Positions 10,848 to 63,989 of a DNA stretch of 64,000 bases are shown here, piece by piece (the stretch's first letter is position 1; the number at the start of each line of letters is the position of its first letter). The stretch covers positions 128,001 to 192,000 of the forward strand of contig JAVRCV020000032.1 of NCBI GenBank assembly GCA_034530615.2. Direction: 5' to 3'. Source of the stretch: Aulosira sp. ZfuVER01 (GTDB taxonomy: Bacteria > Cyanobacteriota > Cyanobacteriia > Cyanobacteriales > Nostocaceae). Below the pieces are notes generated by a model. It saw nothing but the letters and a program-made list of their open reading frames with translations. It searched no databases and was not told the origin of the DNA. The position numbers and the translations under genes are program-made.

Positions 10848-11231
10848 TCAGCCAAACCAGTGAGATGGTTCCAAACCAGGTTGAACTTTTTCACAAAGAT
10901 GATGGCTAATCCAATCTGACTTTTCTTGGAATATTGAGTAAATACCTTGATGAATCAAATTTTGGACATGGAGTTGTTGTTCTAAAGGACTACGAGGTAG
11001 CTTGTAGTTTAGCAAGCATTCTTTTTCTACCTCACCATAGGGAAGCCCTTCAGACATAGGGTAAAAAAGGCAAGGAATACGGCTAAGAACAAAAGCAATT
11101 AACTCTTGGCGCAAGTCAGGAATGGCAAAAGCTTGTTGGTAAGGCTGGTATGGATATGTATCCAATACACTTTCAATTTCTCCTAAAACGGATTGTTGTG
11201 TTAAATTAACTACCGTTTTCATAAATTTCAT
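10848..11231 (-). CDS. ComFB family protein
   Basis: YPYQQAFAIPDLRQELIAFVLSR; C-terminal EPSHWFG. Confidence 0.75.
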   Translation of the reverse strand: MKFMKTVVNLTQQSVLGEIESVLDTYPYQPYQQAFAIPDLRQELIAFVLSRIPCLFYPMSEGLPYGEVEKECLLNYKLPRSPLEQQLHVQNLIHQGIYSIFQEKSDWISHHLCEKVQPGLEPSHWFG

Positions 11232-12523: not shown

Positions 12524-13825
12524 CTAAATAGGCAGAATCATTATAAAGGTTGTTCCCTTACCGGGGCTTGATAAGCAATTGATTTGCCCGTTGTGTTTAT
12601 CAACAATAATCTGGTAGCTGATAGCTAATCCCAGCCCGGTGCCCTTGCCTACAGGCTTGGTGGTGAATGATGGCTCAAAAATCTGAGCTTGCACCTCTGG
12701 AATCATTCCCGGGCCATTATCTTCGATACAAATAGTGACAGTTTTTTGTTGAGGCTCAATCGATGTAGCGATCGTAATAGTATTAGGTTCAGCAGCAATC
12801 TCTGGATAACACTGGTTGCGATCGCAGTCATCAAATGCATCGATAGCATTGGCTATGATATTCATAAATACCTGGTTGAGTTGTCCAGGATAGCAAGCGA
12901 TGGGGGGTAATTTCCCGTATTTTGTGACAACTTGGATTTTAGGGCGATCGCCATTACCTTTGAGCCTATGTTTCAACAGCATCAAGGTGCTATTTATCCC
13001 TTCGTGAATTTGATACTCCACCTTAGATGACATATCTGAGCGCGCAAAGGTTCTCAGCGATAAGCTGATTTCCTTGAGGCGCTCAATTCCTTGAGCCATT
13101 GATGCCAATAATTTGGGCAAATCCTCAGTCAGATACGCTAAATCGATTTCTTTAACTAACTCTTCAATGTCCGCATCTGGATGTGGTAGCTTTTCTTGAT
13201 AGAGGTGTAACAGGCGCAACAGATCTTTGACATATTGCTCAATATGAGAGTAATTACCGTTAATAAAACCAACCGGATTATTAATCTCATGCCCAATACC
13301 TGCAACCAGTTGTCCTAAGGTAGACATTTTTTCACTTTGGATGAGCTGTAGTTGGGTTTGTTTTAACTGTTGTAGAGATTGGCTTAATTCGGCTGTGCGT
13401 TCTTGCACTCGTTCTTCTAATGTTTTTGTGAGATGGGAAATTTTCAGGTGTAACTTTAATCGGGCAATTACTTCTTCTTGTTGAAAAGGTTTGGTAATGT
13501 AATCAACTGCACCAATTTCCAGCCCTTTTACCTTATCTGTAGCATCAGATAAAGCTGTCATAAAAATGACTGGAGTATTTTGGGTAAGTGGATTAGCTTT
13601 CAGCCTGCGACAGGTTTCAAATCCATCCAGACCAGGCATCATCACATCCAGGAGAATCAGATCGGGATGGGCGTATTCTGTTTGTTCGATCGCTGATTCC
13701 CCATCTGTGGCCATGAGTGCTTTCCAGCCACATCCTTGAATCGCTTCTGATAGCACTTTGAGATTGTTGGGGTTGTCATCTACTAAGAGAATATGCATTG
13801 GCTTCAAAAGAGGATTGGTCATCAT
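12524..13825 (-). CDS. Hybrid response regulator / histidine kinase
   Basis: REC (LLVDD, LDVMMP), HEINNP, HATPase GTGLGL. Confidence 0.93.
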
Positions 13826-16596
13826 TGGTGTAACTCCGTTGTGACAAAAGATTTAAGGAATTTACGGATTTTTGCGGTTTGGAAGTTGGCAGTAAATTTG
13901 CTCAACTCAGTTGCAAAAGGAGTTAGCTGACTGTCTTGCTGAATTAGCTCTTTTATCATTCCCTCAATCGCCGCAATATCTCCCATCATTGCCAGATGAT
14001 AGAGTTGTTGCAAAACATCCTGTGAAGGTAGAACCAATTCAGCAGGTGCTTTTTGCTCAGGTTGGGGAAATGACTTCTCTGGTGTGGACTGAGCATAAAT
14101 CCACTCGACTTTGAGCAGCGAGCGCAATGCATTGAAGAGTTCATTAATTTGCAGGGGTTTAGGTACAAATGCCGTTGCGCCTGCTTGCAAACTCCGCTGC
14201 TGATTTTCCTCAAATACATTAGCGCTAGAGACAATAATCGGAATATTACGAGTTTGGGGATTTTCTTGTAAATGAACCATGAGTTCAAAGCCATCCATAT
14301 TAGGCATGGCTAAATCAAGCAAAATTACATCCGGGTGATGTTCATTTAGTATCTCTAACCCATATTTGCCGTCGCTTACTTCCAGGGTTCGACAGCCAAT
14401 TCCTTGCAGCAAAGTGGTCAACATACAACGGTGCTTGGCATCATCATCAACAATGAGAATTAGAGGTGCAGTACCCTGAATGCCGATGATTTTCTGATTT
14501 TTGGGAGGAATTGTTCCTGTTTGCCAGTCATGGGTTACTGGTATTGCTACTGTCAAATCCAGCCAAAAGAGACTACCTTCGCCTAAATGGCTCTGTACTT
14601 GAATTTGGCTGTCCATCAATGCGGCAATTCTTTGACTGATCGCTAATCCCAAGCCAGTACCTTCAGATTTTCGTCCAGCTTCACCTACTTGCTCAAAAGC
14701 CAAAAAGATTTTTTCTAGTTGGTCTGGTGACATCCCAATACCTGTATCTTCAATTTGGAAGCGCAACTTCTGATGTGTCATTTGGGGAAACTCTCGATCG
14801 ATGACATCTACTTTGAAGGTGACGCTACCTTTGTCTGTGAATTTGATGGCGTTACCTAGTAAATTGATCAAAACTTGCCGTAGTCGCTTTTCATCTATTT
14901 GAATGGCAACTGGTAGGCGATCGTCTATTAAGACGTTAAATGCAATTCCTTTCTGCTCAGCTCGAATACTGCAAATCTCGGTGACACTATGTAAGAAAGT
15001 GGGCAGATGTACATTAGTCGCAACCAATTCTAATTTACGAGCTTCAATTTTTGAAAGGTCAAGAATATCATTGATCAGCATCAGTAGGTGTTTCCCACAA
15101 TCGTGGATAATGCTGACTCCTTCTAGGTTTTTCTTTGTCAAGTTTGGCGATGCTTCTAATATCTGTGCAAAACCAAGGATGCCATTAAGAGGTGTGCGTA
15201 ACTCATGGCTCATATTTGCCAGAAACTCACTCTTGGCTTGGTTAGCAGCATCAGCCGCTTGCTTTGCTTCTAATAGTTCGCGAGTTCTTTCTTCAACTTT
15301 GAACTCCAGAGTTTTGGAATAATCCAATAATTGAGCGTTAGCAATTTCTAGTTGTTGATTTGCCTCTTCTAACTTCTGCTGTTTATAGGCATTTGTTGTG
15401 GCAATCACGCTGCTAACGAATGCGGCTAAAACAGGTGTGACTGGAATGAGAACACCATGTAAAAACATTCCGTAGCTACCGCCAATGAATGCTCCACTGA
15501 TGCCAAGAGTTGCCCAAAGAATTTTACCACCTGGAATCCGTCGCCCAGTACGCGCACTTGCTAAGTACCAACTACCACTTGAACCGATCGCAGTCCACAA
15601 AATAATCCACAATGACAAAGAAACTTGAGAAACGCCATGTAGGCTTGTTTGTCCTGTTTTTGCCTCTCGCACCAGTTGAAGAGCAATATTGGCATGGATA
15701 ACAACGCCGGGTGTGGGCTTTTGGGCAGAAATTAAGGAGGAACTAAAGGGTGTGCTAAAGAAGTCATTGGTACTAGTGGCAGTAGAACCAATAAACACCA
15801 TGCGATCGCGCATGAGATTGGCTGGAATGCGCCCTGCTAAGACATCACGCATTGCAACTGTGCGAAATGCCGCTTCTGAACCATGCCAATTCAGCAGAAT
15901 TTGATAGCCACCTAAATCAGCATCGGGGTACCCTGCTTCTCGATCGCCTAGTGGTAAATAAATTGCCTTACCTAATTGAAACTTTTGCTGCTTGGGGTCA
16001 ATGCTTTCTAAAGTAATCTTTTCCGCTTCTAGGTACTTGAGCGCCACAAGGGTTGCCAGCCCAGCTTTCAGCGTGCCTTGCTCTTTGGCATCAACCGCTG
16101 TCAAAAGGGCACGACGCACAAAGCGATCGCCATCTAACACCAAATCTGCTAATCCTACTTGCTCGAGTTTTTTCAATTCCGGCGGCGGATTGACACGTTC
16201 TCCGGTGATTTTCTCAACACCAATTAAATTGGGAGTGCTGCGAAAGATTTTAGCAAGTTCTTCATGTCCGCTTCCCTCTGGTAAATCTCGATACAGATCC
16301 AAGCCAATGGCTCTAGGTTGCTGCGCTCGAATTTTATCTAGTAATTTTGCTAATGCCCAATCTGGAACTGGCCATTTACGCACAGATTGAATATCTTGTT
16401 CATCGATTGTGACAATCACAATTTCATCAGCGATCGTTTCAGGCGATCGCTGACGAACCCATTCATCACGAATTTTCCATTCAACTAAATTGAAAAATCC
16501 CAATGATTGCCCGGCAATGACAGTCAAAGCAACACTGGGAGTAATAATTAAAATACTACGAGTACGTTGGATAAAGGTCTTAAATCTGCGCCACAT
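13822..16596 (-). CDS. CHASE2-domain hybrid sensor histidine kinase
   Basis: CHASE2 ([16 protein letters not shown]), 3 [10 protein letters not shown], HATPase, REC. Confidence 0.93.
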
Positions 16597-16740
16597 ATTT
16601 GCGCCAAATAGGAGTTAAAGGCTGGGTGGACGGGAAGGCAGACAAGGAAGTGTGGGGAGTGTGGGGAGTGTGGGGAATTATCTTCCCTATCTCCTCATCT
16701 TCCCTCCATATCTTCCTTTTGCCCCCTTCCCAAATTGCTC

Positions 16741-17874
16741 TTAGTTCGCAGATGCTAATAATGGAGCTGTGACAATCTCTTTCAAGCTAACTGACGAAAG
16801 AAGTTCGTCCCATTGCTTGGAAAGAGTTACATTGTTAGGTTGTGTAGTATGTAGGGCTGCAAGTGTTGCCACACAGTCATACCAAACACCATTTTTACCA
16901 AAAGCAGCTGCCCGTTTCAGTGCATCTTCCTGTTGCATCGCTGCTGCCAGTTCGGCAGTAGGCTGGATGCGCTGAATCCAACCATCTACGTAAGGTGTAC
17001 TGGGGCCGAGTTGTCCGTCAACTTTAACAGCTAGGAACCATTGGTAGTTTTTCCCAACTGCTAAAGCGGGTGCATTAGCTGGTAATTTAACTGCGATGAC
17101 TCCAGCTTTCCCTGCGATCGGAATGGTCATTTGATGCTGGGTATTGCCAGCTTCATCCTTGAGGCTGAATACAGCTTCTTCCGCATTAGAAGCAGGGAGA
17201 TATACCAGAATTGTCGGACGTTCAGACACAGTTGTGCCATAGAAGTTTTGAGGTAGGAGTGCAATTAGGGCTGCGGGGCCTCCTGCTGCTACAGTTGAAG
17301 GATTTAAGTAGTAAGTACCAACGCGAGAAGCTCCCCCACTAGCTTGTTGAGGAGCCTCTTTCCCAGAAGCAGGTGTAAAGAGATTGCCTCTGGAAGCGCC
17401 TCCGGTTGCTTGTTGGGGCGTACCCTTCCCGGCGCTAGGTGTAAAGAGATTGCCTCTAGAAGCGCCTCCGGTTGCTTGTTGGGGCGTACCCTTCCCGGCG
17501 CTAGGTGTAAAGAGATTGCCTCTAGAAGCGCCTCCGGTTGCTTGCCTAGGGGCACCTTTACCTGCACTTGGTGTAAAGAGGTTGCCTCTAGAAGCGCCTC
17601 CGGTTGCTTGCCTAGGGGCACCTTTACCAGCGCTAGGTGTAAACAGATTACCGCGAGAAGCACCTCCGGTTGCTTGACTAGGAGCGCCTTTACCAGAAGC
17701 AGGGATAAAGAAACTACCACGAGAAGCACCGCCGGTTGCTTGGCTAGGAGCACCATTATTGATTGGTGGGGTAAATGTCACAGCATGAACGCTATTCCAT
17801 GTACTACTAGTAAGCAGAGCGATGACGCTCAATGTACTGGCTAAATATCGATGTTTCACAAGCTTGTACCTCAT
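16741..17874 (-). CDS. DUF928 protein with signal peptide and seven tandem peptide repeats
   Basis: Signal peptide ending VHA; repeats NLFTPxxGKGxPxQATGGASRG; DUF928 C-domain (PTILVYLP, YQW, GVWYD); start placed at MRYKL. Confidence 0.88.
   Translation of the reverse strand: MRYKLVKHRYLASTLSVIALLTSSTWNSVHAVTFTPPINNGAPSQATGGASRGSFFIPASGKGAPSQATGGASRGNLFTPSAGKGAPRQATGGASRGNLFTPSAGKGAPRQATGGASRGNLFTPSAGKGTPQQATGGASRGNLFTPSAGKGTPQQATGGASRGNLFTPASGKEAPQQASGGASRVGTYYLNPSTVAAGGPAALIALLPQNFYGTTVSERPTILVYLPASNAEEAVFSLKDEAGNTQHQMTIPIAGKAGVIAVKLPANAPALAVGKNYQWFLAVKVDGQLGPSTPYVDGWIQRIQPTAELAAAMQQEDALKRAAAFGKNGVWYDCVATLAALHTTQPNNVTLSKQWDELLSSVSLKEIVTAPLLASAN
17323..17775 (-). repeat. 66-bp coding tandem repeat, 7 units
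   Basis: Period of 66 nt, e.g. AGGTGTAAAGAGATTGCCTC at 17371, 17437 and 17503. Confidence 0.93.
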
Positions 17875-18046
17875 AGGCAAAGTAACAAAAAATACTATTA
17901 TTCTGATTGTGGGAAGAAACTTGTAAAATCGGTTTCTACAAAAGTCAAAGGTTGAAATACCTACTAGCAATATAAACGAATTTTGACTGTCGAACCGTAA
18001 AAAATATGCGTAAATTACTGGCTTTCTAGTTCAGTATATTTACGTA

Positions 18047-20608
18047 TTAAAGCCAATTACCAACCAAAACAAAGGCAGACCAAAAGAAAGGATCGTGGAA
18101 ATCAGTTTGGCGAATCAGGTTGATTTGAGCTTGGCGCAGTGCCTCGGCTTTGGTGATTTTGGGCTTTCGTAATTGCTCATAAAAGCGCGTCATCAGCATC
18201 TCAGCTGCTTTATCTTTAACAGGCCAGAGAGTGGCAATAGTTGAGCGAGCGCCAGATTTGACAGCCAAGCCAGCTAGTCCCAGAACGGCGCGATCGTCGC
18301 CAGCTGCTGTATCGCACGCACTTAGTACTAGCAACTCGATCGCTTTTGATGAATCACCAGTACGATTTTTGAGGAGTTCGGACAATTCTTTGACGTTCAC
18401 TTGTCCATCCCACGTAAGTAAGAAGGTATCTTCGAGACGGGAACTAAACTGTCCGTGGGTTGCTAGATGGACAACATCAGCACTAGTAAATTTCACGCTA
18501 TTGGCAAGGGCTTGATTGGTGAATTGCTGGTTGAGCAACATTGAAGATGGCACTGCCTTCGAGATTTTCTTGACTTCTGATTCCACAGCAGGCAAAGCAC
18601 TAAAGCCATTACGAGATTCGCTGATACCGCCAACGATCGCATCAATGCGCTTTTCCTGAAGCGATCGCGCAGTCATCAATTGCATTCCTGGTGAGAGGGC
18701 CACCGCATACTTCTCGATTAGATATTGCTTACCGTCATACAGGGCTGCTATAGGAATATTACGTAAGCGTCCATCTAAAACGAATACTAGTGTTTTGCTG
18801 TCTTGGAAGGCTCGATCCATCTCCGCAGGGCGAATTAGCCAACTATACACTTCTTCGGATAGGCGATCGCGCTCTTTGGAATCTGAGACAGGATTCAAGC
18901 CAACTAATAATTTATCTAGAGTTTGTTCGATGTCGGCTTGAGATTTTTGTGTCACATAGTAACGCAACGGTTGTCCAGTTTTGGAGAGGATGACTGCAAG
19001 GCGATCGCTTAAGATAATTGGATAGACAACAGTTGCATTCGGGTCAACTTGGTCAATCTGCTGTGCCCGATCTAAACAAGCTTCCCTAAAAAAGTTATCG
19101 AGTTCTGCGACTTGCAATGCTTCAATCAGATCGCGAGCTTCCGTCAGTGCAGACTGACTGGGTTGTCCATCTAGGAGTAAACTGACAAGTTCGCGGTAGA
19201 CAGGCTCTACGCTTTCACGGAAGGAGAACTGCACATCAGGGTTGACAGCAACCAAATCCCCTCGTAGGGACTTTAAGGCTTTGACTGCTTCAGTATAGGC
19301 ACTAATTGCTTGGGGGCGATCGCCTTGTTGTTTGTACAACTGTCCTACCTGCCAAGCAGATTGAGCAATAATATCGTCAGCTTGGAGTTGACGCGCAATG
19401 TTCAGGGATTTCTGAGTTAATTCCTGTGCTTGTGATAACTGCTGTGTACGACGATAGAGTTTTCCCCATTGATGTAGTGCATAAGCTTCTGCTTGAGCAT
19501 CTTGGATTTGTTGTGCAGACTTGATTGTACTCGCCATCAGTTGTGCCAAGTCTTTCAGCGGTACGATTTGGTAAGAATTTGACAGCCGATTTACACTGGC
19601 AACAAAATTAATAGCTGCGTAGAGGGAAGTGTGGCTAGGAGGCAGTTCTCCTAGTTGTTGTAGTAGTTGCGGTGCGAGTGGAGTAGCCAACTCAAGTTTG
19701 TCATAATCGAGCAAAAGTTTGAAACGCCCTAAACTTGCTTGTAAGCGATCGCCTGGATTTGTTGCTACCTGTTCTGCCTGTTCAAAATAATCTAATGCTG
19801 TCTGTGGATCTTGCAAGTCAGCGGCGATTTTTCCTAGGTTCAACAGGATAGAACTTAATTGAGGTTTAGTTTCAAGTTTGCTGGCGATCGCTAAACTTTG
19901 TTCTAACACTTGTTGACTTCTACTAGAATCACCAATCGTTTGCAAAGCTAAACCAACCGATCGCAACCCACTAACTTTAACTTCCGAATCTGGCATTGCT
20001 CCTAACTTTTGATTTAGCGCCTCCAACTGCTGTTTAGAACGACGATAAAATCCCAAACTTTGTAAAGCTTGTGCAGAGTTGATTTGACTACCCAAGCTGC
20101 CCAATTGGTCGCCTGCTTGTTCATAATATTTTTGCGCTTGTTGCCAACTTTCCAGGGCGATTTCCGCTTTACCAGTATGTAGTTGTAAATTCCCTCGTGT
20201 ATTCAGTACTTGTGCCCAAACAATTGCGTCGGCAGGAGGTGACATTGTTTGCAATAGTTTGATGCTTTGTTCAATAGATTGGCTAGCTGCTTCCCACTGA
20301 TTAAGTTCTTGTTGCGCTAATGACAGGTAACTCAAGCTGAGAGCTTCATTGGTGCGATCGCCTTGGGTATGGTAGTTTTGTACTGCCGTTTGCCAAATCG
20401 TCACTGCTTCTGCAAAGCGTCCCGAACGGTAGAGGTTTCGCCCTTGTTCTAGCCAATTGTTAGGCTGAGTTGATGCTGATACATTTAGGGTAGAAGTTGT
20501 CAGTAATGGCACGGATGCTCTAGCAGGTGTAATAGTCACTGCCAAACACAAACTTAAAATACTCAGACAGATATATAGCCAATAGTATTTTTTAATCGGG
20601 AAGGTCAT
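18047..20608 (-). CDS. Secreted TPR-CHAT domain protease
   Basis: Signal peptide (ARA), TPRs, VHLATHG and LSACDTA catalytic motifs, HDPFFWSAFVLVGNWL. Confidence 0.93.
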   Translation of the reverse strand: MTFPIKKYYWLYICLSILSLCLAVTITPARASVPLLTTSTLNVSASTQPNNWLEQGRNLYRSGRFAEAVTIWQTAVQNYHTQGDRTNEALSLSYLSLAQQELNQWEAASQSIEQSIKLLQTMSPPADAIVWAQVLNTRGNLQLHTGKAEIALESWQQAQKYYEQAGDQLGSLGSQINSAQALQSLGFYRRSKQQLEALNQKLGAMPDSEVKVSGLRSVGLALQTIGDSSRSQQVLEQSLAIASKLETKPQLSSILLNLGKIAADLQDPQTALDYFEQAEQVATNPGDRLQASLGRFKLLLDYDKLELATPLAPQLLQQLGELPPSHTSLYAAINFVASVNRLSNSYQIVPLKDLAQLMASTIKSAQQIQDAQAEAYALHQWGKLYRRTQQLSQAQELTQKSLNIARQLQADDIIAQSAWQVGQLYKQQGDRPQAISAYTEAVKALKSLRGDLVAVNPDVQFSFRESVEPVYRELVSLLLDGQPSQSALTEARDLIEALQVAELDNFFREACLDRAQQIDQVDPNATVVYPIILSDRLAVILSKTGQPLRYYVTQKSQADIEQTLDKLLVGLNPVSDSKERDRLSEEVYSWLIRPAEMDRAFQDSKTLVFVLDGRLRNIPIAALYDGKQYLIEKYAVALSPGMQLMTARSLQEKRIDAIVGGISESRNGFSALPAVESEVKKISKAVPSSMLLNQQFTNQALANSVKFTSADVVHLATHGQFSSRLEDTFLLTWDGQVNVKELSELLKNRTGDSSKAIELLVLSACDTAAGDDRAVLGLAGLAVKSGARSTIATLWPVKDKAAEMLMTRFYEQLRKPKITKAEALRQAQINLIRQTDFHDPFFWSAFVLVGNWL

Positions 20609-20714
20609 AGATATTTACAGATAGTGTAAGAGTTTGTTTAGTAAAGTAATTGTGTAGCGACAGAGTGGGTTTTTATTAAGAGATTGCCTGTTAAGTTTGA
20701 CTTTCTCCAGAGAA

Positions 20715-23207
20715 TTAACTCTTAGGAAGTGCTGCACAAGTTAGCTGTGGCTGTATGTTTGTAGGAGATTTTGCCGCAACTAATTCAACTTTGCCTTGGG
20801 CGTTACGATGCCAGGAAGTTGCTTGGACAAGAACCTCTGATGATGTAGGCGTTTGGGCAGTCACATTGCCAGTTTTGCGGAATGCAGAGATATCGCGAGT
20901 GTCAGACCAAGTGCGATCGCTCCCTACTTCTCTTGTCGGATTTTGCGGCACACCACCTCGTCCTGTCGCCACGAAAGTACTACCAGTATTGGCAGAACAA
21001 CCTGTAGCTATTTGTTGGGATGGATCGGTGATATTTACTGGTAATTCAACTAAACCAGAATTGGGATCGATACCAATATTATTAATTTCCACTGTCCCAT
21101 TGACATTAAATGCGGAACTAGCTGTAATATCATTGGTCAAATCTGCTCTAGGAGTTAGAGTATTGACGTATTCTAGACCGATAATACCTTGAGTAGTGAT
21201 GTTAATATTACCACCACGACCTTGAACCGCATTGGCGATAATGTCGCTGTTTTCTAAACCTACAATCACAGGCGAGGTAATTGACAAGTTACCACCATTA
21301 CCTGTGCCCGCAGATGTAGCAGAAATAACGCTATCGTGACGCATCAGCAGGTAATCTTGTAAGTTTAATCTGACATTTCCCCCGTGACCAGAGGCGGTAG
21401 ATGCAGTGATGTTGCCTTGTTGGTCTAGAACAATTGAGTTAGCATTTATCTGTAAATCTCCAGCTTTACCAGTTCCATCATTTTTGACGCTCACTGCTCC
21501 GCCATCGATCAGGCGTAACAATGGTGTGTTGATTATTAAAGAACCTGAATTGCCAGTAGGTACCGGAGGGAGTTGAAAGATAGCTTGAGTAACAGGATCG
21601 GTCTTCTCGGCGTTGGAAAAAATGCGTGCGGGTAATTCAGTGACAGGACCTTCGGTAAAGCGATCTGCAATATCTATGGATTTAGAAGCGTTGACTACCA
21701 CGCTACCAGCCGAACCACTTGCTACAGTCGTAGAACCTAAAGATCCTCCCTTTTGGATTGTTAATCTAGCAGTATTGATAACTGCGCTATTTGCATTACC
21801 CGATCCCTGAGTGAAGGTAGCGAGACTACTGCCAGGATCTGTAATTTCCACTAGATCCGCGGCATTCACTTGGATTGCTCCACTCTGTCCAGAACTGACA
21901 GCAACAGAAACAATATTACCATTATCGAAAAGCTTGACATCCCCAGTGGATACTGTGATATTTCCTGCATCACCGCTATTTACTGAAAATGTGACGAGCG
22001 CAGTATAAATCGCTGGATTGGCGCGGTTAAAGCCACCGATCTCGGTTATACCGCCCACATTGGTGACAATGTTTGCACCTGCTGTTTGAGACCGAGTTCT
22101 AGTCACAATTCTTCCGCCATCTTGAAGGAAGAGGTTGGTGGCCGAGATTGCTATATCTCCTACCTCACCTGTACCAAAATTGTTACTTTGGATCAAACTT
22201 CCCAATTGACCGTTGGCTGTATTTCCTGTAATACTTAGGGAACCTGTGGCATTAGCTGTAATTCCCCCAGAGGATTGTGTTCCCAGGTTTTGGAGCAAAG
22301 CAGCAGAACCCTCAGTCAAACTAATATTTTGTCCTTGTAATAGGATTGAGCCGTTGCTGCCACTGGCATTCAGCAGCGATTGTTGCGCCAGATGAATATC
22401 ATTAAATTGTTGCACGTTGGAATAATCACCAATCCAGCCTGTTGGAGTAGGTTTAAGTCCAACTTGTCCATTCCTGACACTGCCCACTTCTAGATGCCCA
22501 CTACCCTTGGTGGAAGCAACCCCACCGGAAAAGTTCACTCCAGCGCCAATCAACGCCAGTGTTTGATTTGTTCCAGCTTGTAATCCGGGGGGGCTTTTGC
22601 TGGCATTAGCTTGACCAAAGCCAGTACTATCTGTCAACAGGTTTCCCAGTCCCTGTACGGTAATGGTTCCTGAGTTTTGACCCATCTGCAAGCCGATAGG
22701 TACACTCATAGTTAGTAAAGGAGTACTATTAGCATTTACTGCACTAAACTCTGCACCATCGCTAAATTTAATACTATTTGCTGTCGTTCCTAGAAATGAA
22801 CCACCTATATTTAAACTGGCATTTTCTCCAAAAATAATCCCATTAGGATTTAACAAAAATAAATTGGCGCTACCATTGGCTTTGATTAAACCATCAATAT
22901 TAGATGTACTACCGCCAGTGACTCGCGCAAAGATATTCTCAATGGTGGTGGCATTGTCGAACAAGGCAGAGCCTTTGCTGGGAATGGAAAATTGGCTGAA
23001 GCTGTGAAACAGATTATTGCCTGTGACAGTGCCATTAGTAATCGTGAAGTTATTGCCATTCTGGAAGACAGTAGTATTGAGGCTGCCATCTGAAGCTATC
23101 TGAGCATTTGCGTAGCTGTTGCCAAAGAACATGATTCCGATTGGTAGCAGTATAGAACCTGCCCATATTCGATTCATCAAACTCAAATAAACAGAAAGCA
23201 GCCTCAT
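20715..23207 (-). CDS. Filamentous hemagglutinin-like TpsA exoprotein
   Basis: NLFHSF, NPNG TPS motif, beta-helix repeats, C-terminal FVATGRGG. Confidence 0.9.
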   Translation of the reverse strand: MRLLSVYLSLMNRIWAGSILLPIGIMFFGNSYANAQIASDGSLNTTVFQNGNNFTITNGTVTGNNLFHSFSQFSIPSKGSALFDNATTIENIFARVTGGSTSNIDGLIKANGSANLFLLNPNGIIFGENASLNIGGSFLGTTANSIKFSDGAEFSAVNANSTPLLTMSVPIGLQMGQNSGTITVQGLGNLLTDSTGFGQANASKSPPGLQAGTNQTLALIGAGVNFSGGVASTKGSGHLEVGSVRNGQVGLKPTPTGWIGDYSNVQQFNDIHLAQQSLLNASGSNGSILLQGQNISLTEGSAALLQNLGTQSSGGITANATGSLSITGNTANGQLGSLIQSNNFGTGEVGDIAISATNLFLQDGGRIVTRTRSQTAGANIVTNVGGITEIGGFNRANPAIYTALVTFSVNSGDAGNITVSTGDVKLFDNGNIVSVAVSSGQSGAIQVNAADLVEITDPGSSLATFTQGSGNANSAVINTARLTIQKGGSLGSTTVASGSAGSVVVNASKSIDIADRFTEGPVTELPARIFSNAEKTDPVTQAIFQLPPVPTGNSGSLIINTPLLRLIDGGAVSVKNDGTGKAGDLQINANSIVLDQQGNITASTASGHGGNVRLNLQDYLLMRHDSVISATSAGTGNGGNLSITSPVIVGLENSDIIANAVQGRGGNINITTQGIIGLEYVNTLTPRADLTNDITASSAFNVNGTVEINNIGIDPNSGLVELPVNITDPSQQIATGCSANTGSTFVATGRGGVPQNPTREVGSDRTWSDTRDISAFRKTGNVTAQTPTSSEVLVQATSWHRNAQGKVELVAAKSPTNIQPQLTCAALPKS

Positions 23208-23240
23208 TATTAGTCTCCTTTTATACCTATTTAATATTCC

Positions 23241-25766
23241 CTAAATGTTATTGTTCCTAACATTCAAAATGTTTGAATTGCTGGACAAATCAACTCTTGG
23301 AACCGCAGCACAAGTTAACGGCGGTTGGATATGTGCAGGAGATTGTGCCGCAATTAATTCAACTTTGCCTTGGGCGTTACGATGCCAGGAAGTAGCTTCG
23401 ACAATGACAGTTGGTGATGTAGGTGTTTTGGCAGTTACATTACTAGTTTTGCGATATGCAGAGATGTCACGGATATCAGACCAAGTGCGATCGCTCCTCA
23501 CTTCCTGCGTGGGATTTTGTGGTACACCACCCCGTCCCGTAGCCACAAATTTACTGCCTTGTTCGCTGGCACAACCTGTAGCAATTTGCTGCGATGGATC
23601 GGTAACATTTGCAGGTAATTCTACTAAGCCAGAATTGGGATCGACACCGATGTTATTAATTTGAACTGTGCCACTAACACCAAATTGGGAACTGGCGGTG
23701 ATGTCATTTTCTGGGGTAAGTTCAGGACGAAACTGCAATCCAATTAAACCCTGAGTGGTGATTTGAATATTGCCGCCCTTCCCTTGAAAGGCATTCGCAA
23801 TAATGTCACTGTTTCCCACTCCAGCAACGATTGGTGCATTGATATTGATATTACCGCCATTACCATTACCGCCTGCGGTAGCTGCGATCGCGCTATTGCT
23901 ACGCAGCAGCAACAACTTCCCAACATCTAAAGCGATATTCCCGCCATTACCCGATTCTGTTGCTGCTTGGATGCTGGCTTGACGCTCTAATCGAATGGTA
24001 TTAGCTGTAATGTTGAGACTGCCACCATTGCCGCTACCTTGACTAGTAACACTCACTGTTCCACCATCCATCAATTTCAGGTTGGGTGTAGTAATGCGCA
24101 CATTACCCGCATTGGCTGTTAGTATGTCTGGCAAACGAAATAGCTGCTGAAATTGTGGATCTAATCGTAAGACAGATGAGTTGATGCTGCTGTTATTGCT
24201 CTGATTGCGTCCAGCGATTTCAATCGATTCTGTAGCGTTAATACTCAGATCTCCACCATTACCAATAAAAAATGTAGTTGCAGCAACAGCTCCCCCATCG
24301 AGAATTTGTAACTTAGCTGTATCTAGGGTTAAGATTTTGGCATTTCCCATTGCAAATGTAGTAGAGCTAATGTTGCTATATAGTCCGAAAGGGTTTTCTC
24401 CCATCACAGTGGTGCGATCGTTGCGAATTGTCACCTTACCACTAGAGCCACTACCAAATGTAGCTGAACTCAATGAAGCGCCACCTGATACTACTAAACT
24501 ATTGCCATTAACAAAGATGTCGCCTGCGTTCCCCGAACTATAATAGCTAGATGTGCTTAGGGTACTAATGCCTGTAGGATTGATTGGTGAAAAGCCAGAT
24601 AATTCAATTGCACTTGCCTGAATTTCGATATTGCCACTTGCAGCCTTTCCTAGAGTAGAACTATTCAATCCTGCTCCCTGTTGGAGTGTCAGCTTGGGAG
24701 TAATGACGCTGATATCGCTACCAGCTGCACTGCCGAAAGTTTCACTGCGAATCCCACTCCAAATTGCAGCATCGGTTCTACCAATCATGTCTATCGCTGC
24801 TGATGCTTGCAGGTGAATTTTACCTCCGGCTAAATCACCGAAATTTTGTGCCAGTATCAGTGAACCATCCGTGAATTCAATATGTCGCCCCTGAACCTGT
24901 ACAGATCCCGCATTGATTCCACTTACATTAACTAGCGATCGCTGTGCTAGTTGAATATCGCCAAAGCTTTGCCCATTTTCATAACCCAAGGTATAGCCTT
25001 GTACTGTGGGTATGAGGCTGACCAATCCTACACCACTCACGCTGCCTAATTCTACTTGCCCCTGTTGAGCAGTTAGAGTTGCCCCATTCAGATCCAAATT
25101 GCCCCCTACCAAAGCTAGGGTTTGTCCTGGCTGTACCCGCAGTTCGCTAGCACTAGGAGTCACAGTTATTGGCGGCAATCCATTGGGATTGGGATTTCTT
25201 AAGGAGTGTCCGGTGCCTTGGACAATGATCGCCGCCGGATTGCTGCCCATTTGCAAACCAATGGGAACATTAATGCTTAAAAGGGGCTGAGTTTGGGAAT
25301 TAATTGCACTAAACTCTGCACCATCAGCAAACTTAATGCTATTTGCAGTTGTACCAACAAACGATCCACCAATATTCAGTTGAGCATTAGGGCCAAATAA
25401 AATGCCACTAGGATTAATCAAAAATAGGCTCACAGGATGATTGCTGTTGATGGTTTGAATTATGCCATCAATGTTAGAAATGCTACCTCCTGTAACCCGG
25501 CCAAATATAGTAGTTATGTTTGGTGTGTTGACTACATCAAAGATAGCTGAAGTACCAGTAGGAACGCTAAATTGCTGGAAACTGTGAAATAAATTACTGT
25601 TGGCAGCACTGCCGTTATTGATGATAAAATTGCTACCACTTTGTGAAACATTTGTATTAAGAGTGCCATCGGACGTAACCTGGGCGTTAGCAAAGCCACA
25701 CCAGAGAAATATGCTACCTGTCAAAATTCCATTAACCAAATTCCAGCAAATAGAAGGCGCTTTCAT
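23241..25766 (-). CDS. Filamentous hemagglutinin-like TpsA exoprotein (paralog)
   Basis: NLFHSF, NPSG motif; C-terminus nearly identical to the neighbour. Confidence 0.9.
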   Translation of the reverse strand: MKAPSICWNLVNGILTGSIFLWCGFANAQVTSDGTLNTNVSQSGSNFIINNGSAANSNLFHSFQQFSVPTGTSAIFDVVNTPNITTIFGRVTGGSISNIDGIIQTINSNHPVSLFLINPSGILFGPNAQLNIGGSFVGTTANSIKFADGAEFSAINSQTQPLLSINVPIGLQMGSNPAAIIVQGTGHSLRNPNPNGLPPITVTPSASELRVQPGQTLALVGGNLDLNGATLTAQQGQVELGSVSGVGLVSLIPTVQGYTLGYENGQSFGDIQLAQRSLVNVSGINAGSVQVQGRHIEFTDGSLILAQNFGDLAGGKIHLQASAAIDMIGRTDAAIWSGIRSETFGSAAGSDISVITPKLTLQQGAGLNSSTLGKAASGNIEIQASAIELSGFSPINPTGISTLSTSSYYSSGNAGDIFVNGNSLVVSGGASLSSATFGSGSSGKVTIRNDRTTVMGENPFGLYSNISSTTFAMGNAKILTLDTAKLQILDGGAVAATTFFIGNGGDLSINATESIEIAGRNQSNNSSINSSVLRLDPQFQQLFRLPDILTANAGNVRITTPNLKLMDGGTVSVTSQGSGNGGSLNITANTIRLERQASIQAATESGNGGNIALDVGKLLLLRSNSAIAATAGGNGNGGNININAPIVAGVGNSDIIANAFQGKGGNIQITTQGLIGLQFRPELTPENDITASSQFGVSGTVQINNIGVDPNSGLVELPANVTDPSQQIATGCASEQGSKFVATGRGGVPQNPTQEVRSDRTWSDIRDISAYRKTSNVTAKTPTSPTVIVEATSWHRNAQGKVELIAAQSPAHIQPPLTCAAVPRVDLSSNSNILNVRNNNI

Positions 25767-25805
25767 CTAGCAGTTTCCAACAATACTTATATAAATAGAG
25801 TTCCC

Positions 25806-27578
25806 TCAAAACGGTGAATACTGCACGGAGAAGTACAAACCATTTTCCTGAAGCGATCGCTTTTCACCCTCTACTGATGTCAGCGGAATACCCCAATCCA
25901 AACGGGCTGAGAAGTTATTACCCTGTTTCCATAGCAGCCCTAATCCAGTACCTACTAACATACTTGGTGAAGGATTGTCGCCTTTGGTATTCCAACCTTT
26001 ACCAATATCGATAAAGGGTGTCAGTTGTAGCACTCCTCCCAGCTTGGGCGCGCGTAAAATCGGCAAGCGAAACTCTGCCGAAAACAACATGCCATTGTCT
26101 GTGAGTAATGTGTCTTGGCGATAGCCCCGCACACTTACCTGTCCGCCCAGGCCAAATTGTTCTAAGGGCACTAAGGAATCTGCTGCTAGTTGTAAATCAC
26201 CTCTAGCTAAAAACAAAGTATCTGGTGCCAACTGTCGCACCCACTGCGCCTGTCCCCGCCAAGCGAAAAAGCGGCTATCTGGTTCATCTTCGCTCACATT
26301 GGCATCAAACCAATCTACACCCAAGCTAAATTGCGATCGCACTGCAAACACGTGCTGATTGCTGCGCTGGGTATACTCCTGAAAAAAGCGGAGAGCCGAA
26401 ATATTGGTTCTTCCTTGGGCATCTGCACCAGGTGAAAGTCGAAACGGGCCAATGTTATCAATGCCCAACTCTGTTTGGCTTTCTTGGCGCGAGAACGATA
26501 ATCCCACAGCTAAATCCTGAGTAGGTTTTTGCAGTAATGGTTGGCGATAGCCAAATTCGTAAGATGTCGTATTTGATTGAATATCTAAGACGCTGAATGG
26601 TTCTTCAATCACGTTGTTCCAACCCTGATTAAAACCAAACCAGAGAGTGCCGTTGTCAGGATTAATCGGTAGTGCGTAATTGAGATTGATTGTATTACTG
26701 CCATCGGTATTGGCGTATCCCACATTCAGGGTATCGCCTAAACCAAGTAAATTAGCTTGTTGTAGATCTATTCCCCGACGGAAACTACCAACACTGGGCG
26801 ATCGCCCATTATCGAGGGTAGCTGTGAGGGAAAATGTGTCGGCTTCTTGAATCTCGACTTGCAATATATTGGTTCCCGGACTTACACCCATCTGCAATTC
26901 AGCTGATAGATTTTGAATTCGCGGATCGAGGCGTAGCAGTTGGAGTTTTTCCATTAAGCGCGGTATATTTAAAGGCTTTCCCGCCCCAAGTTGAATGCGA
27001 TCGCGAATGTATTGACTACGCAATCGTCTATTACCTCTGATTTTGATTTCTTGCAGACTACCTTCGATAACCTGAATTTTAATCGTCCCAGCTTCTACTG
27101 TCTGCGGTGTAATTAATGCCCCTGTAGTGACATAGCCTTTATCAGTGTAAAGCTTCGTAATCGCATCTTTGATTTGCAGTAATTCTGCAAATGTCAATTC
27201 TCTGCCAACGAAGGGATTGGTAATTGCAGCCAACTGTTCTGGTTTGAAGACTGTACTGCCAACAACTTCAATGCGATCGACCCGAAATTTGATATTAGAA
27301 TCATCCTGTGCGGGAATTGACGGCTCTGGTAGTGTGGGCGGTGGAAGTAATTGATTGTTTTCTGGCGGCTTTGGCAACACATCCGCAGGTAAGGGGGTTA
27401 CAGGAACCTCTTCTATCCTTCCAGGCGGCAAGTTCTGAGGATTTGGAGTTTGGGCGTAGGCGTAGCCCGACGTAGTCATCGCGTCCTGATAGTTACTCAG
27501 TACCGTGGCTAAAACAAAGCTAAATGTCAGAGATTTGAGAGGTCTATTCAATGTTGACGTATATCTGACGGTAGTCAT
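25806..27578 (-). CDS. ShlB/FhaC/HecB family TpsB outer-membrane transporter
   Basis: POTRA (YTDKGYVTT), VRGY motif, terminal Phe. Confidence 0.92.
   Translation of the reverse strand: MTTVRYTSTLNRPLKSLTFSFVLATVLSNYQDAMTTSGYAYAQTPNPQNLPPGRIEEVPVTPLPADVLPKPPENNQLLPPPTLPEPSIPAQDDSNIKFRVDRIEVVGSTVFKPEQLAAITNPFVGRELTFAELLQIKDAITKLYTDKGYVTTGALITPQTVEAGTIKIQVIEGSLQEIKIRGNRRLRSQYIRDRIQLGAGKPLNIPRLMEKLQLLRLDPRIQNLSAELQMGVSPGTNILQVEIQEADTFSLTATLDNGRSPSVGSFRRGIDLQQANLLGLGDTLNVGYANTDGSNTINLNYALPINPDNGTLWFGFNQGWNNVIEEPFSVLDIQSNTTSYEFGYRQPLLQKPTQDLAVGLSFSRQESQTELGIDNIGPFRLSPGADAQGRTNISALRFFQEYTQRSNQHVFAVRSQFSLGVDWFDANVSEDEPDSRFFAWRGQAQWVRQLAPDTLFLARGDLQLAADSLVPLEQFGLGGQVSVRGYRQDTLLTDNGMLFSAEFRLPILRAPKLGGVLQLTPFIDIGKGWNTKGDNPSPSMLVGTGLGLLWKQGNNFSARLDWGIPLTSVEGEKRSLQENGLYFSVQYSPF
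27457..27477. mobile_element. 21-nt small dispersed repeat inserted in a HIP1 site (SDR5-like)
   Basis: GCG-[TAGGCGTAGCCCGACGTAGTC]-ATCGC; removal restores GCGATCGC; in frame (MTTSGYAYA). Confidence 0.8.
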
Positions 27579-62075: not shown

Positions 62076-63989
62076 TTAAAAATTATATTTACTGTCATCT
62101 ATCCTCTGAGTCAGCCAAAATTTGGGCACAGGCCATGATAACTCACAAAGAGTACCTCTAGGATAAAGGGAAACTCTCCGAAATTTCCCTTTGAGTTGTC
62201 GAGCTAAATTTCTAAATTGCTGTGTTCCTCTGCCTTCTCTATATGAACTGATAGCTAATCCATCATCTACAATGCTAAGAGTCTGCCAGCCTTCAGACAA
62301 AGAACTAGTAACTTCCAAGCGAGTAACTCTGGTTGCGTGTTTGCCAACATTACATAAAGCTTCTTCTAGAAAGCGGCAAAGTCTTCGTTTGTCTTCAATG
62401 CTCAAATATCCTTCATCTATTGGTTCAAAAGTGCGGATTTTTACTCTGAGACTTTTAAAGCAGGGAAAGTCTCGTTCTAAGGTATAGCTGTAAACTTGAT
62501 AGAGAATTTCATGCATCGGGTCTTGTAAATTAATTAATAGCCCCTTTTCTAGATACAAGCTACTATCTTGGTTTATCGGTTCTCGTTGCAAAAATTCATA
62601 AATTCCTCGGAGATCCTGATTTAATTTTTCCAATTCTTTTTGCACTTCTGGCAGTAATTTCTCTGTAGGTAGGTTGCGATCGCGAACCAACTTCAAAACT
62701 TTAGCCAGAGTTTGCAGCGGCCCATTGTGAATTGTTTCAAATGTTAGTTCCATCATAGAATGACGAGCGTTAATTCCAGAACGCAAAGCTTGTTCGTATT
62801 GATATAAAGCTGTGAGTCCTAGAGCATTCAAAGTATAAATAATTATTGCTGGTGTGACTGGAATCCACCATCCCCAAGTTAAGAATAAATAACTAACAAA
62901 CACTAAGATAAAACTAACGCCAGTAATAGCCAAAAGGTTAATCAAAGGGAATTTAGTCAGCCTAGCATGAGCAATTCCTAAAAAAGCCCAAGCGACAATC
63001 CAGATATATTCCCATTCATCTGGCCAAGTATTTAAGAGTGGTCGAGAATTCAAAACTGCACTGATAATTTGACTAACAGCATGGGCATGAATTTCTACTC
63101 CATAAACTTGGCCTGGTGGTGCAAATTTGGCAGATGGAATCGCGGAAGTAGTGGTAAAGTCTTTAGCACTAGGGGCAGTCATCCCAATAATCACAATGCG
63201 ATCGCGTATCCACTCTGGTGGGACTTTTCCGGCTTTAATATCGCCAAGAGTAACTGTTCTAAATCGTTCTCGACCACTGCGAAAGTTAAACAGTACTTGA
63301 AATCCGCCTGCATCGGTTCGCACATATCCCCCAGAGTTACTGAAGACACGAGGTAGTTCAGTATTGCCGAATTTGATAGTGTTGCGATCGCCAGTTCCAT
63401 GTTCTAGGTTAATACCCTTAGCAGCTAAATAAGCCTCTGCCAAAAGTAGAGACAAGGCAAATTTATTTCCTTGAGGTGTTGTTGTTCTTAAGAGACTGCG
63501 CCTTAATTTCCCATCAACATCCGGGATTTGATCTACAAAACCTACTTGTGCACTGGGTAAATCTGGTGGTGGATCAACTGTCTTAGGTAATACTTTTGCA
63601 ATACCAATTAAATTTTTAGTATTTCTAAATATACTTTCTAGTTCTGAGTGTCCAGGCTCAACAGGTATATCCCTAACAATATCAAGACCAATAACTTTAG
63701 GCGCGTAAGATTGTAATTTTCTTACCACCGCAGCCATTTCCCGATCTGCTACAGGATATCCTACCTGATGGATATCATCTTCATTAATCCCTACAATCAG
63801 AATTCGTTCATCTATATTTTCTGTAAGACGCAGACGCAGAAAAGTATCAAAAACTAGCCATTCTAAAGATTGCATTGAACCAGTAAGACGAGCAATCATC
63901 ACCAGACAAAGAACTACAATGCCTGGTAATAGACCTACACGCCAAACGGCCAGTTCTGCGGTGATTCTTTGCCAAAGTCCAGGCTGCAT
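62076..63989 (-). CDS. CHASE2-domain sensor histidine kinase
   Basis: CHASE2 (IGLDIVRD, YGVEIHA), 3 TM, TIHNGPLQ H-box, EEALCNVGKHA, DDG. Confidence 0.88.
   Translation of the reverse strand: MQPGLWQRITAELAVWRVGLLPGIVVLCLVMIARLTGSMQSLEWLVFDTFLRLRLTENIDERILIVGINEDDIHQVGYPVADREMAAVVRKLQSYAPKVIGLDIVRDIPVEPGHSELESIFRNTKNLIGIAKVLPKTVDPPPDLPSAQVGFVDQIPDVDGKLRRSLLRTTTPQGNKFALSLLLAEAYLAAKGINLEHGTGDRNTIKFGNTELPRVFSNSGGYVRTDAGGFQVLFNFRSGRERFRTVTLGDIKAGKVPPEWIRDRIVIIGMTAPSAKDFTTTSAIPSAKFAPPGQVYGVEIHAHAVSQIISAVLNSRPLLNTWPDEWEYIWIVAWAFLGIAHARLTKFPLINLLAITGVSFILVFVSYLFLTWGWWIPVTPAIIIYTLNALGLTALYQYEQALRSGINARHSMMELTFETIHNGPLQTLAKVLKLVRDRNLPTEKLLPEVQKELEKLNQDLRGIYEFLQREPINQDSSLYLEKGLLINLQDPMHEILYQVYSYTLERDFPCFKSLRVKIRTFEPIDEGYLSIEDKRRLCRFLEEALCNVGKHATRVTRLEVTSSLSEGWQTLSIVDDGLAISSYREGRGTQQFRNLARQLKGKFRRVSLYPRGTLCELSWPVPKFWLTQRIDDSKYNF

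Follow-up and report, generated by a model that had tools for sequence, protein, structure and literature searches.

In a window of 64,000 nucleotides (the whole stretch of DNA analysed) from Aulosira sp. ZfuVER01, contig JAVRCV020000032.1, positions 128,001 to 192,000, seven co-oriented genes between window positions 12524 and 27578 place a two-partner secretion (TPS) system beside a caspase-like protease, a secreted repeat protein and two histidine kinases. All are minus-strand open reading frames (ORFs), and Pfam confirms the domains that the sequence-only reading, made before this work, had named for each. The first encodes a TpsB/ShlB-type outer-membrane transporter of 590 aa with POTRA domain and beta-barrel (25806..27578; POTRA_2 PF08479, ShlB PF03865), and the next two encode short filamentous-haemagglutinin-like exoproteins, TpsA1 (23241..25766, 841 aa; TPS domain PF05860, TIGR01901) and its paralogue TpsA2 (20715..23207, 830 aa; TPS domain). 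A POTRA/beta-barrel TpsB beside TpsAs with an N-terminal TPS domain is the arrangement of type Vb two-partner secretion. Each exoprotein ends in a tail recognised by alignment, Cys732...TGRGG...Cys819 in TpsA1 (23310..23573) and Cys737...TGRGG...Cys824 in TpsA2 (20736..20999), which is a predicted periplasmic disulfide hook and a candidate docking site for the TPRs of the protease.

The protease itself, an 853 aa TPR-CHAT protein identified by Pfam and alignment (18047..20608), has a hydrophobic N-terminal segment (residues 11-29) and is predicted to be exported, export signals having been judged from hydrophobicity and AxA-like sites. It carries the His-Gly and Ala-Cys dyad of the CHAT family (clan CD), with His718 (HLATHG) and Cys765 (LSAC) intact as first reported, and an aspartate at position 799. 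It is followed by a secreted DUF928 protein of 372 aa (16741..17859; PF06051, 197 bits against a cut-off of 26) composed of a signal peptide, seven peptide units and an immunoglobulin (Ig)-like plus helical domain. The repeats and secretion signal of this gene were described correctly at the outset; its start codon is most likely the GTG at 17859, where the database protein and most orthologues begin, and not 17970. The last two genes encode a CHASE2 membrane hybrid histidine kinase (CHASE2-HisKA-HATPase-REC by Pfam; 13822..16596, 924 aa) and a soluble REC-HisKA-HATPase kinase (12524..13825, 433 aa; Pfam), and the phospho-accepting residues of both are intact (His464 and receiver Asp761; Asp60 and His179). 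The two kinase genes overlap by 4 bp and the remaining intergenic gaps measure 39, 33, 106, 187 and 144 bp; promoter and terminator scans of the locus gave results no better than chance. The nearest relatives are proteins of Nostoc, Calothrix and Tolypothrix.

Orthologous loci were taken from the best 80 of 155 genome matches, and only those with enough flank were counted. CHAT lies directly upstream of DUF928 in 77 of 78, the CHASE2 kinase lies downstream of DUF928 in 75/75 and is itself followed by the REC-kinase in 74/74, and TpsA is found in 61 of 73. Since the last four genes are retained almost without exception and TpsA is held more loosely, the conserved core is CHAT-DUF928-CHASE2 kinase-REC kinase, and the secretion arm varies. 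One natural variant encodes DUF928 as two separate ORFs (L120:9974-10921). We also sampled DUF928 more widely, in 80 regions of 23 other genomes drawn from 150 of 224 matches with long contigs favoured; one overlapping region was dropped, leaving a non-random set of 79 loci that includes four of the repeat subfamily and in which profiles miss divergent domains. Within 20 kb windows of these loci we found CHASE2 in 51, CHAT in 32, TPS domains in 25 and TpsB in 12, against 2.7%, 5.5%, 3.1% and 1.5%, respectively, of random 20 kb windows of the Aulosira genome, so the gene-neighbourhood statistics proposed as a check bear out clustering far above chance. CHASE2 is the adjacent gene in 49 of the 79. 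Across 46 genomes of the same class, those with more DUF928 copies tend to have more CHASE2 copies as well (rho 0.92), though relatedness means that the genomes are not independent. In the literature searched, DUF928 is named in a single paper, where its position next to CHASE2 and WD40 genes goes unexplained (PMC5587647; this and later citations refer to excerpts of the papers). The module is real and conserved, and is undescribed in that literature.

The Aulosira genome as a whole has several sister modules, with five DUF928 proteins, ten CHASE2 proteins, ten tailed TpsAs and one TpsA-CHAT fusion in total. One sister module (L002:4358-19168, on G000:C25) combines that type of fusion, which there reads in frame behind a glycosyltransferase-2 domain, with a free TPR-CHAT, DUF1822, a CHAT-CHASE2 fusion and DUF928. 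Another tailed TpsA, of 889 aa, lies inside a cluster resembling those for ribosomally synthesized and post-translationally modified peptides (L009:1192-10345, on G000:C16), together with a C39-peptidase ATP-binding cassette transporter, a YcaO enzyme and two short precursor-like ORFs in which a double-glycine-type leader end is followed, oddly, by a Peptidase_S74 (endosialidase chaperone) domain.

The seven tandem units of the DUF928 protein, each of 21-22 residues (17323..17781), F-x-P-(x6)-P-x-Q-A-x-G-G-A-S-R, are candidate peptide ligands; the first stands at the predicted mature N-terminus, and a structure model shows the repeat region as disordered and the remainder as a beta-sandwich with helices. 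The unit is an amplified form of the single N-terminal motif of the DUF928 family, F..P...G.P....GGxxR, whose terminal arginine is present in 132 of 140 distant representatives and in all 68 CHASE2-adjacent proteins. The repeat form occurs in 28 of 81 genomes of the family, and among 121 close proteins we counted two (one protein, a partial record), three (8), four (48), five (37), six (23) or seven (4) copies, full-length orthologues having three to seven. A crude count over 300 units from 79 loci gave proportions of nonsynonymous and synonymous differences of 0.125 (pN) and 0.379 (pS), and the repeats are under purifying selection. The terminal arginine is invariant across units, with 43% of its codon pairs showing silent differences; inner junctions are nearly always Arg-Gly (1% amino-acid difference), and in the family at large the following residue is mostly small (Gly in 83/132). 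The phenylalanine and proline 16-18 residues ahead are as fixed as the arginine, which suggests that the whole unit, and not the cut site alone, is recognised. Most of the family has a cysteine no more than six residues after the arginine (122/132) and a second in the beta-sandwich (127/140 representatives); the repeat subfamily has other residues at both positions and in this respect departs from its family. Four single-motif proteins (P0130, P0147, P0168 and P0188) have upstream motif copies that end in Gly or Thr and not Arg, and these copies are possibly non-cleavable.

Over 43 non-redundant pairs, DUF928 and CHASE2 distances correlate with a rho of 0.43, a value reached by none of 2000 within-genome shuffles, and the two trees have eight supported clades in common. 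The 20-residue motif follows CHASE2 better than does any of 32 equal windows of the DUF928 domain, and at 18 loci with a free CHAT it tracks CHASE2 (rho 0.55) more closely than it tracks CHAT (0.15) or the catalytic part of CHAT (0.32); the corresponding values for the DUF928 domain are 0.47 against CHASE2 and 0.35 against CHAT. Co-variation of the motif with CHASE2, not CHAT, is graded as suggestive because the samples are small and related. A cyanobacterial genome of 2.7 Mb holds a minimal module (L219:4302-12666) made up of Crp, a DUF928-like protein, a CHASE2 cyclase, TpsB and a TpsA-CHAT fusion; the DUF928-like protein, of 213 residues and missed by Pfam, keeps the motif in a chain whose domain is barely detectable. 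The CHASE2 ectodomain is modelled with a predicted local distance difference test (pLDDT) score of 91, and the cytoplasmic outputs of CHASE2 proteins are enzymes (kinase, cyclase, GGDEF/EAL). We consider that the DUF928 motif probably binds CHASE2, whether freed or still attached to its protein.

Other features surround CHASE2 genes here and elsewhere. The spacer between DUF928 and the CHASE2 kinase is purine-biased and holds a 9-bp repeat in three copies (window 16649-16676), and a gene with weak resemblance to ComFB follows downstream of the kinase pair (window 10848-11231); a clear ComFB gene occurs within another locus that has CHAT, DUF928 and CHASE2-GGDEF-EAL (L005:6933-7481). A second CHASE2 gene of the window (62076-63989) has no recognised cytoplasmic output domain. 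Secreted FecR-domain genes stand beside CHASE2 in L220, L222, L225 and L226.

The catalytic His and Cys motifs of the protease occur in every one of 77 orthologous CHATs. HetF, a cyanobacterial CHAT protease, cuts after arginine (PMC9457339), and by analogy the same specificity is plausible here. Asp799 is invariant in 40/40 CHATs and is also found in the HetF-like protein of the Aulosira genome (picked by size, domain order and membrane segment), making it a candidate arginine-binding residue. As for the TpsA tail, which matched no Pfam family, both cysteines are conserved at 95% and R745 at 89% across 49 non-redundant tails, the cysteines flanking the G-R-G-G motif. The tail is present in 132 of 137 free TpsAs and in none of four TpsA-CHAT fusions, and TPRs are present in all 107 free CHATs and in none of three fusions; a Pro/Thr-rich linker stands where tail and TPRs were, and the fusion of L219 likewise lacks both. 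In all five natural fusions the two are lost together, and on the simplest view tail and TPRs are likely a periplasmic docking pair. Two single-chain TpsA-tail-TpsB fusions (L155:12831-17153 and L166:1-4422) retain the tail immediately ahead of the POTRA domain, with Gly for Arg in the tail motif of L166.

The reading that we tentatively favour, placing it somewhat short of an even chance, is an outside-in, protease-gated peptide signalling module in which TpsA-docked CHAT cuts after arginine and the freed peptide signals through CHASE2. The exported TPR-CHAT would dock on the periplasmic two-Cys tail of TpsA filaments, its location and the tail-TPR contact both being predictions, and once docked would cleave each repeat of the secreted DUF928 protein on the C-terminal side of its arginine. 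The released 21-22-residue peptides would then bind and switch the neighbouring CHASE2 kinase, presumably as agonists and not inhibitors, and this kinase and its REC-kinase partner would exchange phosphate. Three to seven peptide copies in the repeat subfamily would raise the signal per precursor, and the Ig/helical domain would serve as carrier or adaptor. The trigger might be an altered export state of TpsA when the cell meets a surface or another cell, a guess and the least supported step. A bolder version, which we regard as doubtful, would make the type Vb filament a contact antenna and CHAT a tail-activated, caspase-like convertase that cuts a polyprotein into up to seven Arg-ended CHASE2 ligands, with a receptor-specific peptide code and repeat number as gain. 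If true, cyanobacteria would have a hormone-like periplasmic circuit and the DUF928 peptide would be the long-sought ligand of CHASE2, a domain whose ligands are described as unknown (PMC10581220).

Three steps of this scheme were already proposed in the sequence-only reading, which is partly supported, each step having gained comparative backing. That TpsA activates CHAT draws on the joint loss of tail and TPRs; that CHAT processes DUF928, on a disordered motif with an invariant arginine, mostly small residues after it and the precedent of HetF; and that the product is the CHASE2 ligand, on the motif following CHASE2 and not CHAT, on the copy-number correlation and on a similar gene pairing in MtxA. 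Several observations weigh against them. TpsA has no match within 10 kb upstream or downstream in 12/73 orthologous loci, and one orthologous locus, L064, lacks a CHAT gene in the interval from TpsA to DUF928. In the wider sample most DUF928 loci lack CHAT, which falls within the 20 kb window of only 32/79 and is adjacent in 20/79. The TpsA tail has its own conserved G-R-G-G, and TpsA could therefore be the CHAT substrate instead of DUF928. Proline follows the motif arginine in 4/43 CHASE2-paired DUF928s and 1/132 representatives, and bonds of the X-Pro type are usually avoided by proteases. The position of the aspartate that binds the P1 arginine in separase, mapped through the Craspase numbering of PMC9729208, is not conserved in the CHAT family (Ala in 26/40). 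The co-variation comes from 43 and 18 loci that are related to one another, and part of it reflects shared ancestry. CHASE2 occurs in 117 of 121 sampled genomes and DUF928 in 39, and in 4/14 CHASE2 loci from genomes without Pfam DUF928 the partner is FecR instead; the DUF928 peptide can therefore be the ligand of some CHASE2 domains at most, and DUF928 serves one class of CHASE2 receptors. Finally, deletion of mtxA gave no phenotype (PMC4439547), and a fold common to MtxA does not show function.

Motif-CHASE2 co-variation fits equally well with a tethered ligand, in which the motif would bind CHASE2 while attached to DUF928 and hold the kinase in one state, CHAT would cut the regulator away or be dispensable, and the repeats would give avidity or receptor clustering. 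We judge this fairly unlikely. The DUF928 domain also follows CHASE2, CHASE2 occurs without CHAT in 27/79 loci, and Arg-Pro junctions exist; against this, conservation stops sharply at the arginine, inner junctions are almost always Arg-Gly, CHAT is nearly always adjacent in the repeat subfamily, and each unit appears to copy the mature N-terminus, as would a polyprotein precursor.

The tail raises an inside-out alternative, in which CHAT would cut the G-R-G-G within the Cys hook and free the filament, as in LapD/LapG/CdrA adhesin release, the DUF928 repeats being decoy substrates or inhibitors that tune CHAT. Two conserved cysteines, arginine in 162/167 tail motifs, and CHAT in 21 of the 27 TpsA-bearing wider loci are consistent with it, as is the precedent of CdrA, which is anchored by a cysteine hook and freed by periplasmic LapG (PMC11898600). 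We nevertheless find it unlikely: TpsA-CHAT fusions without the tail still keep DUF928, together with CHASE2 in L176 and L219; CHASE2 proteins have cytoplasmic enzyme outputs, as outside-in receptors do; and the motif follows CHASE2, not CHAT.

It is decidedly unlikely, in our view, that the locus is two units linked only by regulation, with TpsB, TpsA and CHAT maturing an exoprotein and DUF928, CHASE2 and the kinases sensing something else. Such units can be found apart, as C71 and C7 of the Aulosira genome hold TpsA (+TpsB) and CHAT without DUF928 or CHASE2, and CHAT and TpsA are both missing from 41/79 wider loci; yet CHAT remains beside DUF928 where TpsA is gone (12/73), and L219 keeps all parts in one block. 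Very improbable is a contact-delivered effector, with TpsA carrying CHAT into neighbouring cells as toxin or kin signal and DUF928 as target or immunity protein: TpsA-CHAT fusions do put the protease where polymorphic toxins bear their toxin domain, and C-terminal caspase domains have been proposed as toxins (PMC3482391), but a free CHAT comes with a signal peptide of its own, its domain shows conservation and not polymorphism, the length of the TpsAs is small (about 830 aa), and the toxin table of the same paper lists Tox-Caspase with type II, type VI and type VII secretion systems and PVC export, not type V.

Our preferred reading of an outside-in peptide module resembles several known systems in part. 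With Pseudomonas CdrA/CdrB-LapG the locus has in common a TpsA with a C-terminal Cys pair, a TpsB pore and a periplasmic protease (PMC11898600). The Pseudomonas system differs in having no DUF928 or CHASE2, and the Aulosira-type tail vanishes when the protease is fused. LapG belongs to a different protease family and is under inside-out cyclic di-GMP control via LapD; Pfam identifies CHAT and a CHASE2 kinase at our locus in place of a LapG-family protease and LapD-type receptor, and we do not assign it to that class.

Cyanobacterial CHAT proteases likewise act in signalling in HetF-PatU3 (PMC9457339) and in EACC2-caspase-CHASE2 systems with extracytoplasmic function (ECF) sigma factors and DUF1822 (PMC8195603). 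To judge from domain order, CHAT is N-terminal and cytoplasm-facing in those, whereas in Aulosira it is C-terminal, TPR-led and predicted to be exported. No N-terminal EACC2+caspase with ECF sigma and DUF1822 occurs among the seven genes or their scanned neighbours, and the locus is not of that type; a CHAT-CHASE2 fusion with DUF1822 and DUF928 does exist elsewhere in the Aulosira genome.

In the Sinorhizobium NsrA-CyaK/CyaD1/D2-Clr pathway, as would be the case here, inner-membrane CHASE2 enzymes receive a proteinaceous outside signal by way of an outer-membrane protein (PMC7529298, PMC13001267). There the receptor is a single beta-barrel and the output is cyclic AMP, and the excerpts describe no TpsA/TpsB pair, periplasmic protease, peptide precursor or direct CHASE2 ligand; with a TpsB/TpsA pair and histidine kinases in place of NsrA barrel and cyclase, the Aulosira locus is not a member of this group.

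The remaining parallel is with the mtx cluster of magnetotactic bacteria. The top fold match of the DUF928 model is MtxA (PDB 4Z29), whose family's Ig-like plus TPR-like C-terminal fold is present. At the sequence level, MtxA did not appear among the 25 listed of 53 families for 150 DUF928 members or among PDB profile matches, and an ESM-Atlas lead (score 0.78) is the only one. The N-terminal domain of MtxA is folded and mainly beta, where DUF928 has disordered peptide repeats, and the excerpts of PMC4439547 name no TpsA or protease. What the two loci have in common is a gene for a secreted Ig-like plus TPR-like protein directly before that for a CHASE2 receptor, mtxA being followed by a CHASE2 adenylate cyclase gene (PMC4439547).
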